DNA of 26,837 nt. Origin: a virus. Taxonomy: Duplodnaviria; Caudoviricetes. Every line of letters begins with the position of its first letter. Positions within the stretch are counted from its first letter, which is position 1. A program made the position numbers and the translations under genes. Below, in pieces: positions 249 to 26,837 of this stretch. The stretch covers positions 1 to 26,837 of the IMG/VR virus record IMGVR_UViG_3300030397_000879; one strand, 5' to 3'. The notes beneath the pieces are model-generated. The model was not told where the DNA came from and ran no database searches. It saw only the letters and a program-made list of their open reading frames with translations.

Positions 249-332
249 GATAATGGGGGGTACAAGAGCGCCTACTTATAACGAACTACAGATGTTTTAA
301 GCATTTCTGTACACAATTGCATATATAATTGT
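249..332 (+). promoter_or_regulatory. Tandem putative -10 elements (GATAAT 249-254; TATAAT 324-329 inside palindrome ACAATT-N8-AATTGT 313-332)
   Basis: Both hexamers and the palindrome are conserved in repeat copy 2 while neighbouring sequence diverges. No clear -35 elements. Confidence 0.5.
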
Positions 333-333
333 C

Positions 334-417
334 GATGGAAGCCCGTTGTGCAGATGTCTCTGGTTTTTGAGTTGGCGCTCTTTACAGGATGCTAATGCAC
401 GACGGGCTTTTGCCGTC
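334..417 (+). ncRNA. Structured antisense-loop RNA 1 (P4 CI / P1 C4-like architecture)
   Basis: Stem 339-352/396-409 has one G-U pair. Loop 370-384 is the exact reverse complement of 431-445 (directly before the HNH ATG) and partly complementary to 264-282. Confidence 0.75.
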
Positions 418-446
418 AGAAAAATATAGTTAAAGAGCGCCAACTT

Positions 447-827
447 ATGTTATATTTACCCCCTTTTTCCCTCTGGATGAAGCGCGAACGTCGTAAGCTT
501 TATCTGAATCGTTATCGTGCCAGGCAGCAAGGCTTGCCGGCGACCCTTGGCATTGCTGAATGGATGGAGATTTTGAAAGCACATAATTGGTCATGTGTCT
601 TTTGTGGTCGTCCGTATCAGAGTTTGGAGCATGTTATCCCGATCCATGGGGGTGGGGGCACAACGCCTGAGAATTGTGTGCCCAGTTGTATTGATTGCAA
701 CTATAAACGGAATCGGGTGGTGACGAATGCCCAAAATTTGGTGACGTTGATGCAAAACAATGCCTATGTGGTGGATGACTATATCCAAGCGTTGTTGGAT
801 GAGTTGGTGCCCCTGATTTGTGATTAA
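447..827 (+). CDS. HNH endonuclease, copy 1
   Basis: CVFC ... EHVIP ... GG ... N ... C-x2-CN pattern of the HNH/McrA-like family; lies upstream of the terminase genes. Confidence 0.9.
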   Translation: MLYLPPFSLWMKRERRKLYLNRYRARQQGLPATLGIAEWMEILKAHNWSCVFCGRPYQSLEHVIPIHGGGGTTPENCVPSCIDCNYKRNRVVTNAQNLVTLMQNNAYVVDDYIQALLDELVPLICD

Positions 828-8339: not shown

Positions 8340-8677
8340 TGTCTGCCACTTCACTCGCCACTGTCACTGCCTCGACGTTACGACGTCCAGCTCCTTCGGG
8401 TGGGTTGATTGGTGCTCCGGAGAGCAGTATTGCCAGCTTCCTGATTACGCCTTTTCAGAGTGTGAGTGCTGAATTGGCGTTGGAGGCTACGATTCAAGAT
8501 GCCAGTGAGAGCAAGGTGTGTCACGCCTTTACGAGTGGGGGTAGTCTCTACGATGTGAAGGAAGGGGATATTTTAGTGGTGAGTGGCACTGAGTATGACA
8601 TTCAGCATGTGGCTGAGTTTAATCGCGGTGTGGATTCATACAGCCGCATCATTGTTAACGAAAGAAAGGTGAATTGA
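8339..8677 (+). CDS. Putative head closure (stopper) protein
   Basis: DVKEGDILVVSGTEYDIQHV resembles SPP1 gp16 / lambda FII-type proteins; synteny. Confidence 0.65.
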   Translation: MSATSLATVTASTLRRPAPSGGLIGAPESSIASFLITPFQSVSAELALEATIQDASESKVCHAFTSGGSLYDVKEGDILVVSGTEYDIQHVAEFNRGVDSYSRIIVNERKVN

Positions 8678-8679
8678 TT

Positions 8680-8961
8680 ATGGCTGATGCGAGAAGTGGA
8701 CAAATTACGATTGGTGCTAGTGCTGTAGCTGGCCCAATGGCTCCATTAGGCGGTGTGTTTGTCTTGAAACCACACCCTAGTAATGTGGGTACTGTCTATT
8801 TTGGGGACAATGGCACGTTAGCCTTACCCAATACTGGGGTACGCATGAGTAATAAATTGAGTAAAGAACACACAATTACAACTTATCGGTCATTGAATGA
8901 AATCAATTTTCATGGTGACAATGCCGGTGACAAGGTGTGTTGGTTACAAGCGGAGTTGTAA
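8680..8961 (+). CDS. Small beta-sandwich virion protein, paralog 1 of 3
   Basis: Shares RSGQI..AVAGP..HPSN.G.V..GD..F.GD..G.KVCW with the next two ORFs. Confidence 0.75.
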   Translation: MADARSGQITIGASAVAGPMAPLGGVFVLKPHPSNVGTVYFGDNGTLALPNTGVRMSNKLSKEHTITTYRSLNEINFHGDNAGDKVCWLQAEL

Positions 8962-8962
8962 G

Positions 8963-9244
8963 ATGCCTGGCATAAAAACAAATCAGTTTACAGTAACAAC
9001 AGCAGGGACGGCGGTGCAAGGACCAGCAAGTCCATTAGGGCGCACTTTTTACTTATCGGCACATCCCAGTAATACAGGGGCTGTGTGGGTCGGTGATGAT
9101 GGTGCTGGGGCTGTCAGCAATGCCAATGGTTTTCCGCTTCTGGTGGATGCCCGTCCTATTGAGGTTAATGTGCCTCGTTCGTTGGCTGATTTATGGTTTG
9201 ATGCAGATACCAATGGCAATAGTGTTTGTTGGTCTGCGGTTTAG
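8963..9244 (+). CDS. Small beta-sandwich virion protein, paralog 2 of 3
   Basis: SD GGAG, ATG 8963; motifs VTTAGTAV, AHPSNT, VWVG, NGFPL, VPRSLADL.FDADTNG..VCW. Confidence 0.8.
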   Translation: MPGIKTNQFTVTTAGTAVQGPASPLGRTFYLSAHPSNTGAVWVGDDGAGAVSNANGFPLLVDARPIEVNVPRSLADLWFDADTNGNSVCWSAV

Positions 9245-9255
9245 GAGAAAACAAA

Positions 9256-9540
9256 ATGGCAAGTTTACGTAGTGGACAAATTGAAGTAACAACAGCGGGC
9301 ACAGCGGTGGCAGGACCTGCTACCCCGACAGCTCGACGCTTTTTGTTAGCAGCTCATCCTTCAAATACAAACCCTGTTTGGGTGGGTAATGATGGGTCTG
9401 ATGATGTCACTAGTGGCAATGGTTTCCCCTTGGAAGCGGGGGGAGATACGGTGGTGGTGGAAGTGCCTCGTTCATTGGCTGATTTGCGCTTTGATGCGGA
9501 TACCAATGGCGAAAAGGTGTGTTGGCTGGTATTGCTATGA
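9256..9540 (+). CDS. Small beta-sandwich virion protein, paralog 3 of 3
   Basis: SD AGGAG, ATG 9256; same motifs as paralog 2, with visible DNA similarity. Confidence 0.8.
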   Translation: MASLRSGQIEVTTAGTAVAGPATPTARRFLLAAHPSNTNPVWVGNDGSDDVTSGNGFPLEAGGDTVVVEVPRSLADLRFDADTNGEKVCWLVLL

Positions 9541-18791: not shown

Positions 18792-19077
18792 TGTGTTTGT
18801 GGCTTTTTTGAGTGGCATCGTGTCTCATCAGACGCATCATATTTTTAAGCAGATGCCGCAGGGGTATTGGGTGCGAAATGCGCGGTATATTGTGGGGATA
18901 CTTTCTTCTGTGCCGGCGTATTTGTTGATGAGAGAGGAGCAAAAGAAACGGGCGAGTGAGTCTGTTTTGGATAATTTGAGTTATTATATTTTACTTTTTG
19001 CTAGTGTTGGTTTTGGGGTACAGGTAGGGTATTTGCTTGACCATGTGTTGGGCAGGAATGGTATGACTGACAGGTGA
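18784..19077 (+). CDS. Small multi-pass membrane protein (possible holin)
   Basis: Three hydrophobic segments in ~97 aa; last gene before a terminator. Confidence 0.55.
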   Translation: MISVFVAFLSGIVSHQTHHIFKQMPQGYWVRNARYIVGILSSVPAYLLMREEQKKRASESVLDNLSYYILLFASVGFGVQVGYLLDHVLGRNGMTDR

Positions 19078-19116: not shown

Positions 19117-19158
19117 GACACCCTTTGTATGGCTCTCCGTACAAGGGGTGTTTGCTTT
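19117..19158 (+). terminator. Intrinsic terminator ending the late operon
   Basis: GACACCCTTTGTATGG(19117-32)/CCGTACAAGGGGTGTT(19137-52) with G-U pairs, followed by TGCTTT. Confidence 0.7.
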
Positions 19159-19286
19159 ATGGAACAATGTTTCTATAGCGGGGGGGAGGGGTATTGGTGA
19201 TAATGGGGGGTACAAGCTCACCACTTGTTACATCTTGATTTGCCATATAGGCATACCAGCCCACAATTTCATATATAATTGTCGTT

Positions 19287-19361
19287 GAAGGCCCATTACG
19301 CTAAGGGAATCAGGTTACGAGTGGTGAGCTCCGCTGGTGTACCGACGCGTAATGGGCTTTC
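19287..19361 (+). ncRNA. Structured antisense-loop RNA 2
   Basis: Stem 19287-301/19347-361 has one G-U pair. Loop 19319-332 is the exact reverse complement of 19383-396 (SD GGAG up to the ATG) and complementary to 19215-231. Confidence 0.78.
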
Positions 19362-19396
19362 GCCGTCAGAAGTAACTTAAAAGGAGCTCACCACTC

Positions 19397-19774
19397 ATGT
19401 TACTATTACCCCCTTTTTCCCTCTGGATGAAGCGCGAACGTCGTAAGCTTTATCTGAATCGTTATCGTGCCAGGCAGCAGGGCTTGCCGGCTACCCTTGG
19501 TATTGCTGAATGGATGAAGATTTTGAAGGCACATAATTGGCTGTGTGTCTTTTGTGGTCGTCCGTATCAGAGCTTGGAGCATGTTATCCCGATCCATGAT
19601 GGTGGGGGCACAACGCCTGAGAATTGTGTGCCCAGTTGTATTGATTGCAACTATAAACGGAATCGGGTGGTGACGAATGCCCAAAATTTGGTGACGTTGA
19701 TGCAAAACAATGCCTATGTGGTGGATGACTATATCCAAGAGCTATTGGATGAATTAGCACCCTTTATCTCTTGA
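19397..19774 (+). CDS. HNH endonuclease, copy 2
   Basis: Same motifs as copy 1; differs by 5 internal substitutions plus the last few residues. Confidence 0.9.
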   Translation: MLLLPPFSLWMKRERRKLYLNRYRARQQGLPATLGIAEWMKILKAHNWLCVFCGRPYQSLEHVIPIHDGGGTTPENCVPSCIDCNYKRNRVVTNAQNLVTLMQNNAYVVDDYIQELLDELAPFIS

Positions 19775-19831: not shown

Positions 19832-19861
19832 TTGACAAATCGTTCGGTTTTTTTATATAAT
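19832..19861 (+). promoter_or_regulatory. Consensus sigma70-type promoter
   Basis: TTGACA (19832-37)-N18-TATAAT (19856-61). Confidence 0.8.
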
Positions 19862-20072: not shown

Positions 20073-20789
20073 ATGAGAAAGGAATGTCCCTATTGTGGAC
20101 GAGGTTTAGAGGTTGAGATGAGGTTGCGAGCGGTCAGTAGTGGTTCTGGGGTGGCTCCTGGGGTTTTTACAATGGGTGCCGGGATGATGAGTGGTGGGCC
20201 GCGTCGTGTGTTACGGAAACCTGTGTTGCCTTTGGGGGTGAATCATTTTGCTTTGGCAGGGATTGTGGGATTGGCCTGTAGTGTGGCTGTGGTGGTTGGG
20301 AGTACGTTTGTTTGTGCTGTAGATGGGTCTTTGTGTCTGAGTATGGGGCAAATGGTTCTGGGGGCAATTTTGGCGGGTGTTGGTGGTGGTGTGGGGACGT
20401 TGCGCTTTATTGATGGGGGTCGGTATGAGGTACGGGAGGAGCTGGGGACAGTGAAGGCTCAGCAGGTGGCTCCGATAAAGGTGGATGTGCCGGTGCAGCG
20501 GATTGAGTTGGCTGTGAAACGGTCGAATAGTGTGAATACACGCTGGTTTGATTTGCCCAGTGGTATTCAGGTGAAGCATTTGCGGAATGTGTCGCGGGTG
20601 TTGCAGCAAAATGATTGGCGGTATTCGCGTCCGTTGTTTGAAGATCGTAAGGCGTTGACACAAACGCAGTTTCGCAAGTTGACGGGGCTGCTGAAGGAAC
20701 AGGCGTTGGTACGGAAGGTGAAGAATAAGCATGTGGTGACTGAGGAGGGGCGTTTGTTTTTTCAGCGGTATTGGAGTTTGGTGTCGTGA
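20073..20789 (+). CDS. Membrane protein with N-terminal CxxC and C-terminal winged-helix-like domain
   Basis: CPYC, two hydrophobic segments, basic C-terminus ending ...LV.K....VTEEGR; SD AAGGA. Confidence 0.65.
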   Translation: MRKECPYCGRGLEVEMRLRAVSSGSGVAPGVFTMGAGMMSGGPRRVLRKPVLPLGVNHFALAGIVGLACSVAVVVGSTFVCAVDGSLCLSMGQMVLGAILAGVGGGVGTLRFIDGGRYEVREELGTVKAQQVAPIKVDVPVQRIELAVKRSNSVNTRWFDLPSGIQVKHLRNVSRVLQQNDWRYSRPLFEDRKALTQTQFRKLTGLLKEQALVRKVKNKHVVTEEGRLFFQRYWSLVS

Positions 20790-20838: not shown

Positions 20839-20955
20839 TGTAACCGATGGTGATGGTGCAAGGGCACCACAAGTTTATGTTGTCATAACCCCATATAAGC
20901 ATTTTTTTGATAACAAAACTTTATACACCATCGGTTACACACCCCATATATGGGG
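20839..20955 (+). other. Large branched inverted-repeat structure
   Basis: 14-bp perfect IR 20839-52/20926-39, side hairpin TGGTGC/GCACCA, inner stem 20871-85/20908-21, then palindrome CCCCATATATGGGG at 20942-55. Confidence 0.6.
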
Positions 20956-26028: not shown

Positions 26029-26276
26029 ATTTTTGTTTTTTTTGAAAAAGCCACAAATTCACGCTTTCTTTATGGACGGATTGCCATATAATTTGCCATA
26101 CTTAGTCAGATTCAGTGCCAATATAACCAATAGCAAAACAATTACATAAAAACAGACAGCCCCACAATTGGAACTTGCGAGGCTGTCGCGCATCAGTGTT
26201 TTACCCAACTAGAACACAAAAGATGCCAAGAAAAAGGAATAATAATATGATACCTAAAATTAGAACATGCGACCTA

Positions 26277-26304
26277 TTGACTTTTACTACAAAATCTTTA
26301 AGAT
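26277..26304 (+). promoter_or_regulatory. Putative sigma70-type promoter
   Basis: TTGACT (26277-82)-N16-TAAGAT (26299-304); predicted +1 near 26311. Confidence 0.5.
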
Positions 26305-26344
26305 TGTTCGTGCAACGTCAAGAATTTAATAATTTCGATTGTAG

Positions 26345-26415
26345 AACAAAGCCCTTGGCTTATCATTTTCTTGGCGTTGCAACCAAATTTGATAGGTCAA
26401 GGGCTTTGTTTTTTT
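26345..26415 (+). ncRNA. Structured antisense-loop / attenuator hairpin 4
   Basis: 21-bp stem 26345-65/26390-410 with 2 G-U pairs. The loop is complementary to 26311-24 (via 26368-81) and to 26223-34. A U-tract follows. Confidence 0.7.
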
Positions 26416-26421
26416 CAATAC

Positions 26422-26457
26422 AAAAAGGGCTAGGTCGTGAGAGAAACGACCTAGCCC
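26422..26457. terminator. Perfect 12-bp hairpin; terminator-like on the minus strand
   Basis: GGGCTAGGTCGT(26427-38)/ACGACCTAGCCC(26446-57) preceded by AAAAA. Confidence 0.55.
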
Positions 26458-26485
26458 CCACCAACATTATCAACGGAGGTTAATA

Positions 26486-26837
26486 ATGTCTTCAACAAAA
26501 CAAAATGAGCTATCCTTGCCTGAAGTCAAAAAACGTCCACCTATGGCACACATCAAGCAAGTAAATGATTACTTGCAAGAGATGTTGCTTGGAATGGCAG
26601 CGAACTATTCGGATCGTGTGATCTACCAGGTTGAAAGGGAAGCCATTGACCGTCTGATTGCCATCGAGAAAGAATTGAAAACTGTATTGCCTAAGACAGC
26701 TCACGCGCTGTTGGCTGAACTCATTGACATCTATAACATCGAAGTGTCTAAAGTAGGCCATACATGCTTCTTTGCAGGTTTGCATTTTCCCAAGGCTTTA
26801 CAACAACTTGATGCCAATTGGATCGTGACTGGGAAAC
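26486..26837 (+). CDS. Hypothetical helical protein, truncated by the window end
   Basis: SD GGAGGT, ATG 26486, frame open to the window end (MSSTKQNELSLPEVKK...). Absent from the ORF track because there is no stop. Confidence 0.75.
   Translation, partial: MSSTKQNELSLPEVKKRPPMAHIKQVNDYLQEMLLGMAANYSDRVIYQVEREAIDRLIAIEKELKTVLPKTAHALLAELIDIYNIEVSKVGHTCFFAGLHFPKALQQLDANWIVTGK

Follow-up and report, generated by a model that had tools for sequence, protein, structure and literature searches.

In phage P4, the seqC site overlaps the start of kil, and both P4 kil and P1 icd act as leader genes in polarity-type control. Plasmid antisense systems use loop-loop recognition. Processing of the P4 leader yields the CI RNA, whose partners are an upstream site, seqA, and a downstream one, seqC (PMC4825925 and PMC3632133, which, like all other papers cited here, are cited for the accessible part of their text). 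The C4 RNA consists of three stem-loops, undergoes RNase P processing and carries the loops that set P1/P7 specificity (PMC5320573, PMC12197685); four changed bases in C4 and its target abolish the cross-reaction between P1 and P7 (PMC5320573). A motif survey of 2010 reported C4 from Proteobacteria and phages, and its main text, in the accessible part, does not mention HNH (PMC2864571). In the Salmonella prophage Gifsy-1, the short leader form of IsrK acts in trans on the long form (PMC4825925), and the homing endonuclease genes of T-even phages carry cis hairpins over their RBS (PMC2988022). No A-B-C antisense switch on an HNH gene was found in the open literature, subscription papers, including the primary P4 work, lying outside this search. 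The accessible text of a paper on P1 Ref holds nothing on antisense control of ref (PMC4713147).

The window analyzed here is a whole virus record of 26,837 bases with 46% G+C, which may itself be partial. It contains an accessory HNH cassette in two copies (195-827 and 19145-19774), whose leaders have the same architecture: site A is followed by a conserved TATAAT, then by a 21-pair stem that carries loop B, and finally by site C over the RBS. The first-pass annotation had reported this order of elements together with their sequence strings and had likened the arrangement to P4 seqA/CI/seqC. Every element and string was recovered in its place, and the likeness in topology is supported by covariation and folding. 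The leader is a real, well-covarying RNA element.

The phage record and its HNH cassettes

The main genes of the record all lie on the + strand, in the order terminase, portal, capsid and tape measure, followed by small genes. Among named organisms, relatives of the large terminase occur in an Anaerolineae bacterium (55%) and in a Chloroflexi bacterium (50%); hence, the host is probably a member of the Chloroflexota. DNA of this phage was present in four runs of one aquatic study, among which the source sample may be included. In Logan contigs of one study, possibly the source sample, each leader is contiguous with its own flank; thus, a collapsed repeat or a misassembly is unlikely.

Population-variable sites adjoin both HNH cassettes (122-130 and 18998-19018). 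At 122-130, an X1 Logan contig carries about 920 extra bases, with the 122-130 sequence on both sides of the insertion, and loose contig ends in X2 and X3 are consistent with it; a second alternative path in X1 departs at 18998-19018. A low-depth X2 contig leaves the HNH gene at 783 / 19733 with a third 3' sequence and may represent a third cassette variant. Elsewhere, the tail region (8674-9540) holds three short tandem paralogous genes, two of which share a 70-nt repeat with 81% identity. The gene-poor stretch 20839-20955 contains a perfect 14-bp inverted repeat with a 73-nt loop, followed by a 14-bp palindrome, possibly an RNA or an origin. A further structured leader (26080-26486, with TATAAT near 26088) lies ahead of the gene at 26486. 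Its terminator-like hairpin and U-run (26345-26410) would be disrupted by an alternative pairing (26311-26332/26360-26381), and another hairpin (26427-26457) precedes the RBS of the gene. This whole leader is attenuator-like and has short motifs in common with the copy-2 leader.

The two cassettes are 18,950 bases apart and align without gaps at this offset from about 195 to 800, with all features described below on the + strand. Copy 1 starts with a conserved upstream block (195-262) composed of a near-palindrome (211-223), a G-rich tract and GATAAT (249-254), the candidate promoter P1. Between 209 and 262, 46 of 54 positions are identical in copy 2, and the near-palindrome was found in the window only in the two copies. 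Site A1 (264-282) is an imperfect complement of B1 and a look-alike of C1 (15/16 bases) that lacks a start codon. It is followed by a conserved box (312-333, 21/22 identical between the copies), whose TATAAT (324-329) lies within a short inverted repeat and represents a candidate promoter P2 or operator. In the long stem (329-419), a candidate antisense RNA, positions 329-351 pair with 397-419 below a terminal sub-hairpin; the antisense segment B1 spans 369-384. The variable part of B forms a short tip on a GAG/CUC mini-stem in both copies. The target C1 (431-446) covers a Shine-Dalgarno-like AAAGAG and the spacer to the ATG, has a weak flanking helix (422-429/450-457) and abuts the HNH nuclease gene (447-827; 126 aa). 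A separate promoter-like site (886-915; 10/12, extended -10) lies 3' of the cassette, before the gene of the terminase small subunit (terS).

Copy 2 is preceded by a terminator-like hairpin (19117-19152) and repeats the same plan. Its conserved upstream block (19145-19212) contains GATAAT at 19199-19204, and site A2 (19215-19231) complements B2 and its 5' flank through 15 Watson-Crick pairs and one G-U pair out of 17 positions. The TATAAT (19274-19279) is followed by the long stem (19279-19369), with a terminal sub-hairpin and the antisense segment B2 (19319-19332), and by the target C2 (19383-19396), which covers the Shine-Dalgarno sequence AAGGAG and the spacer and has a flanking helix (19371-19376/19399-19404). 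The HNH gene (19397-19774) encodes 125 aa, 94% identical to copy 1, and a separate consensus promoter (19832-19861; 12/12) lies downstream. After this perfect sigma-70 promoter, the region up to 20041 shows nested inverted repeats (19880-19893/20001-20014 and 19974-19990/20020-20036) and a U-run, and may be a small RNA or an attenuator ahead of the gene at 20073. C is part of a weak hairpin in both copies, and each copy builds the helix that flanks it from different bases; these hairpins are small and not significant alone (z -0.6 and -1.5). A LexA-type box with one mismatch at 212-223 and 19162-19173 is not supported, since matches of this quality are no more frequent in the window than chance predicts (8 found, 8.2 expected).

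The HNH assignment is based on Pfam PF01844 (29.5 and 32.5 bits vs. a cut-off of 21.4), on conservation, and on a structural model (pLDDT 92.7) with a helix, the HNH core and a long C-terminal helix. Copy 1 has C50, C53, H62, N76, C81, C84 and N85, i.e., the zinc cysteines and an intact H-N-N core, and these residues are conserved in at least 90% of 77 sequences. Among solved structures, the stand-alone nicking Gme HNH (4h9d) comes nearest; structural neighbors include the HNH domains of IscB, Cas9 and TasH. The family is large, with 11,486 clusters at E up to 0.001 and look-alike clusters in phages and Chloroflexota. The sole close relative is copy 2, the next best reaching at most 53% over part of the length, and the closest outside relatives (P0002, P0004, P0009 and others) are on Logan/ENA contigs. 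One sequence of the HNH family (P0023) and one of the terminase family (P0233) come from the same sources, with contigs of up to 37,633 bases, and may share one related phage.

An HNH profile gave no match in four related phage records, all of them partial (17-44% complete). In three of these four, terS is preceded by other genes, and the gene downstream of 886-915 matches the pre-TerL gene of related phages. With no HNH match in these partial records, other genes before terS in three of them, and a separate promoter-like site 3' of each cassette, leader and gene together read as an accessory, self-contained cassette. A function of the HNH protein as terminase cofactor was rejected, given that related phages have other genes at this position and that copy 2 is far from the terminase. 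The nuclease most likely helps the cassette itself to spread or to compete with co-infecting genomes.

Pairing, covariation and predicted folds of the leaders

The 15-bp and 14-bp matches claimed for the two leaders are both exact: B1 (370-384) is the reverse complement of C1 (431-445), with an extra G-U pair between 369 and 446, and B2 (19319-19332) is that of C2 (19383-19396). A1 and A2 each complement their own B imperfectly, as the first-pass annotation states for copy 1. Among the perfect inverted repeats of the whole window with arms within 400 nt, B1-C1 is the longest and B2-C2 is one of two 14-mers. Of 200,000 segment pairs (45 x 35 nt) drawn at random from the window, only 4 reached 14 bp, and these can include the true B/C sites. 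On either strand of the window, its own reverse strand excepted, the best partner of each B is its own C, followed by its own A, and the next-best site for B1 is close behind (-23.1 vs. -23.6). A role of B as a regulator of other phage genes was rejected, since no partner in the window beats its own C and A.

In the stem (329-351/397-419), 21 of 23 positions are paired in both copies. The covariation claimed for this stem is present: 14 of the 21 pairs are unchanged, 4 are changed on one side and 3 on both sides. Among the 14 aligned B-C pairs, 9 are changed on both sides, 1 on one side and none is broken, compared with 36-49% paired positions in slid-partner controls; these counts come from two sequences, from which the structure itself was read, and the B-C differences could be explained by fewer events if small indels were allowed in the alignment. 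A two-sided change is also seen in one A-B pair beyond the B-C helix (T368-A278 in copy 1, C19318-G19227 in copy 2); this argues that A is maintained by its pairing to B and is not a mere duplicate of C.

Identity between the copies is 97% in the HNH core (459-788) and 85-95% in the conserved boxes. In B and C it is at the level of 31%, within the same range as the spacer and the loop flanks (31-36%). Given this difference, the leaders diverged long ago, and the coding core was probably homogenized more recently by recombination. As far as two sequences can tell, B-C and stem pairing that has outlived the divergence of the leaders shows selection for pairing. Selection for new codes is not demonstrated by this pattern, and the re-coding named in the first-pass annotation is not shown to be deliberate, B and C being no more diverged than the spacer and the loop flanks around them.

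Both leaders are predicted to form a more stable fold as + strand than as - strand (-40.7 vs. -26.4 and -43.8 vs. -31.6 kcal/mol; z about -4.9). This advantage of about 12-14 kcal/mol and the G-U pairs both favor + as the RNA strand, as had been suggested. As nested folds, A:B, the long stem and B:C are predicted to be mutually exclusive; they lie within about 6 kcal/mol for a transcript starting near 262 and within 2 for one starting near 335. In a growing transcript that contains A (start near 262), A:B is predicted to dominate until the 3' arm of the stem is complete, and in one without A (start near 335) the stem comes first, an order that represents the equilibrium at each length and not true kinetics. 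B:C in cis is the minimum-energy or a near-minimum fold in both copies and at equilibrium is as stable as the stem; thus, an RNA acting in trans is not strictly required.

Binding of the hairpin to its targets was predicted as net energy corrected for accessibility. The cognate values are -19.5 (B1-C1), -16.0 (B1-A1), -21.7 (B2-C2) and -19.3 (B2-A2) kcal/mol, and the cross values are -6.4 (B1-C2), -3.4 (B2-C1), +0.6 (B1-A2) and -11.0 (B2-A1) kcal/mol. On these energies, the mutual insulation postulated for the two copies is predicted at the C sites and leaks one way at A, from B2 to A1. Opening of the RBS in copy 1 is predicted to cost 8.4 kcal/mol at equilibrium, 3.9 with A:B trapped and 4.0 with the stem trapped; the respective values for copy 2 are 7.6, 6.7 and 6.7 kcal/mol. 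A release of translation by A is therefore clearly predicted only for copy 1 (8.4 to 3.9) and barely for copy 2 (7.6 to 6.7), and the effect of the decoy on translation appears modest. According to these models, A more likely acts by keeping the stem from forming, i.e., by delaying it, in new transcripts. Read-through transcripts bury the RBS deeper, with 10.4 and 17.2 kcal/mol needed to open it. This is partly due to the G-rich tract, which can pair with the first HNH codons in the read-through folds of copy 1 (fold-back duplex -24.8) and, more strongly, of copy 2 (-33.1). Collectively, covariation and folding support the A-B-C anatomy and, as a prediction, the proposed blocking of the HNH RBS by B.

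The proposed switch and competing readings

The two leaders are likely largely independent RNA switches that hold enzyme production down. We propose a same-strand antisense switch of the P4 CI type, by which the nuclease would be made briefly on entry and then silenced; as a model, we consider it evenly balanced between right and wrong. The proposal builds on the observed complementarity and covariation, the position of C over the RBS and the HNH identity of the gene, and on the predicted folds, their order and the binding preferences; it further posits that transcription starts at two sites, that a hairpin RNA acts in trans and feeds back via A, that an entry burst is followed by silence, and that one code escapes the other. 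In transcripts with A, A would pair with B before the 3' arm of the stem exists. This would delay the stem and leave C open, allowing some synthesis of the nuclease. In transcripts from the second TATAAT, or in processed ones, the long stem would form first and show B in its loop. The hairpin RNA would then bind C on other transcripts and block initiation, and by binding A on others it would free their B, which would yield more hairpin and hence positive feedback. The outcome would be a burst upon entry into a naive cell and silence afterwards. A cassette with the other B/C code would largely escape the RNA of the resident cassette, and two codes could thereby persist for one nuclease.

Several points weigh against this switch. 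Trapping of A:B is predicted to open the RBS of copy 2 by only 0.9 kcal/mol, the RBS being equally open with the stem trapped, and B2 may bind A1 (net -11.0). A PHROGs scan of 24 proteins returned neither an integrase nor a repressor and thus gave no sign of a lysogenic state. The weak point of the switch is its promoters, neither of which is a good sigma-70 match: the upstream -10-like box, taken for a promoter in the first-pass annotation, is called as such only in copy 1 (9/12 matches); the conserved TATAAT lacks a recognizable -35 and is called in neither copy. The conserved leader boxes do not recur above chance at other promoters. A tRNA-like end is a cue for RNase P processing; the 3' end of the stem has no CCA in the sequence, and neither a terminator nor an RNase P-type end was found in the leaders as a mark of a small-RNA end.

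None of the searches for further leaders turned up a third one. Two DNA patterns gave 9 and 26 matches in viral contigs, none with the leader plan (longest B-C complement among the 26, 8 nt); a third pattern gave 0 in viral contigs and a strict one 0 in metagenome contigs. Blastn of phage records returned nothing better than E 0.7, and a two-leader profile against the fetched loci nothing under E 0.07. A covariance model recovered only the two copies in 37 sources, with 0/5 in further entries and 0/151 in Chloroflexota genomes, from collections that may omit records very near the window's own. Scanning of 2.1 million bases on both strands (loci L197-L287 and the window) for the A-B-C plan yielded 10 matches, 6 of them outside the window, and C abuts an ATG only in the two leaders. 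The longest leader-start complement among distant HNH loci was 11 nt, as assessed in the 138 of 161 with enough upstream DNA, and it was at most 9 nt in 22 loci inspected singly, 9 of which were already in the 161-locus set or duplicated. The HNH profile scans covered 13/64, 4/64 and 41/64 parts of the collections. That only two sequences carry the leader also counts against the switch.

A more far-reaching and somewhat unlikely version describes a selfish cassette with its own RNA 'immunity'. Here, a trans-acting hairpin with an upstream decoy, which turns the nuclease on at entry and off after establishment, heteroimmune loop codes and two non-interfering locks, all in the style of P4/P1, would have evolved independently in Chloroflexota phages, and would serve one mobile gene. 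If true, the phage could fire the same nuclease in cells already protected against one code.

B:C in cis is at or near the energy minimum in both copies, which speaks for a purely cis switch of the T4 homing-endonuclease type, in which B folds on C in the same transcript and hides the RBS. Whether B is free would be decided by A, by stem formation or by a cut in the stem; no trans RNA would be involved, and the differences between the copies would reflect drift and compensation. Structures of this kind are documented for I-TevI, II, III, segB and mobE (PMC2988022), the divergence of B and C is at spacer level, and the read-through folds bury the RBS too. However, the T4 cases are local hairpins with the late promoter inside, and no sigma-70-type promoter-like site was called between B and C, phage-specific promoters being outside the scope of the scan. 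Moreover, B lies here in the loop of a conserved 21-pair stem, which excludes nested B:C and is predicted to form first. We regard a purely cis mode as unlikely.

Addiction or abortive infection, with an unstable B RNA that restrains a toxic nuclease until genome loss or transcription shut-off releases it, is decidedly less probable. The HNH motif is intact, and a stand-alone cassette with a cognate-specific RNA resembles the Sib/Ibs pairs (PMC2943612). PADLOC gave matches to HNH-bearing defense proteins, but these are weak (E 1e-6 or weaker) and span only the HNH core of much longer models. In addition, this explanation has to assume toxicity of the nuclease, fitting RNA half-lives and a state as prophage or plasmid, and its antisense lies on the same strand, whereas type I systems use the opposite strand. 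Polarity, in which a block of HNH translation would terminate transcription ahead of the late genes in copy 1 and of the 20073 operon in copy 2, with HNH as a leader gene, is very improbable. Long same-strand gene runs follow both cassettes, no terminator-like site was called between the copy 1 HNH gene and terS, and CI acts by termination (PMC4825925), but each downstream operon has its own better promoter match, and related phages have other genes before terS. Finally, a guide RNA with B as a programmable spacer targeting DNA is barely conceivable: a constant scaffold with a variable loop does lie beside an HNH gene with IscB, Cas9 and TasH among its structural neighbors, but B matches only the cassette's own A and C, the 126-aa protein consists of the HNH core and helices, with no model match to RNA-guided HNH proteins (IscB/OMEGA, TIGR-Tas; IscB model score 19.5 vs. 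a cut-off of 175) and no RNA-binding domain beyond HNH, and its nearest solved structure is the stand-alone nicking 4h9d.

Comparison with known antisense systems

If the same-strand switch is right, the seqA/CI/seqC logic, known from enterobacterial phage immunity, reaches a stand-alone nuclease cassette, and it does so with an RNA fold absent from Rfam, in a probable Chloroflexota phage. It would also suggest that mobile phage nucleases vary their silencing RNA like plasmid incompatibility loops. Built on one scaffold, the two copies form a natural cognate/non-cognate pair; therefore, cis vs. trans action and specificity are testable with four reporters, and the leaders could act as compact orthogonal translation switches.

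As in P4 seqA/CI/seqC, one strand carries a single antisense segment with complementary sites upstream and downstream, the latter of which covers the first gene's start, as seqC does with kil. Unlike the multi-arm RNA of P4, the RNA here is a single long stem without a match to the Rfam IsrK/seqA or C4/CI families. The gene under control encodes an HNH nuclease and is followed by a separate promoter; the phage probably infects Chloroflexota, and two codes occur in one genome. When the whole window was searched with Rfam cmscan at E up to 1, the one match was a chance snoRNA elsewhere, with none at the leaders; the C4 families (RF01695), which the first-pass annotation had singled out for this comparison, gave no match. 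The likeness to C4 lies in an antisense segment that is presented by a loop and blocks the RBS, and in separate specificities that arise from a changed loop and target. However, C4 has three stem-loops with two recognition loops, a' and b', is processed by RNase P and controls an antirepressor operon, whereas the present leaders have one stem with a terminal sub-hairpin and one recognition segment, and HNH, with no antirepressor seen, lies behind C.

With the T-even genes (I-TevI, I-TevII, I-TevIII, segB and Aeh1 mobE), the cassettes share RNA pairing that hides the RBS of an accessory phage nuclease; indeed, the RBS is predicted to be pairable by an upstream sequence of the same transcript, through B:C in cis. 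The T-even structures are local cis hairpins undone by a late promoter, whereas here a loop 46-50 nt upstream contains the anti-RBS segment, which can also target A and takes part in three alternative folds. IsrK differs in that it opens an RBS and activates, while B complements the RBS and should close it. In type I toxin-antitoxin systems, the antisense comes from the opposite strand or a divergent gene, in contrast to the + strand and the same leader here. The B tip and the C hairpin recall the loop-loop recognition of plasmid antisense systems. With no Rfam match and no C4 fold, the element is P4-like in topology and T-even-like in the gene it controls, but a member of neither group. The logic of the switch has precedents of the P4/C4 kind; its setting on an accessory HNH cassette differs from theirs.
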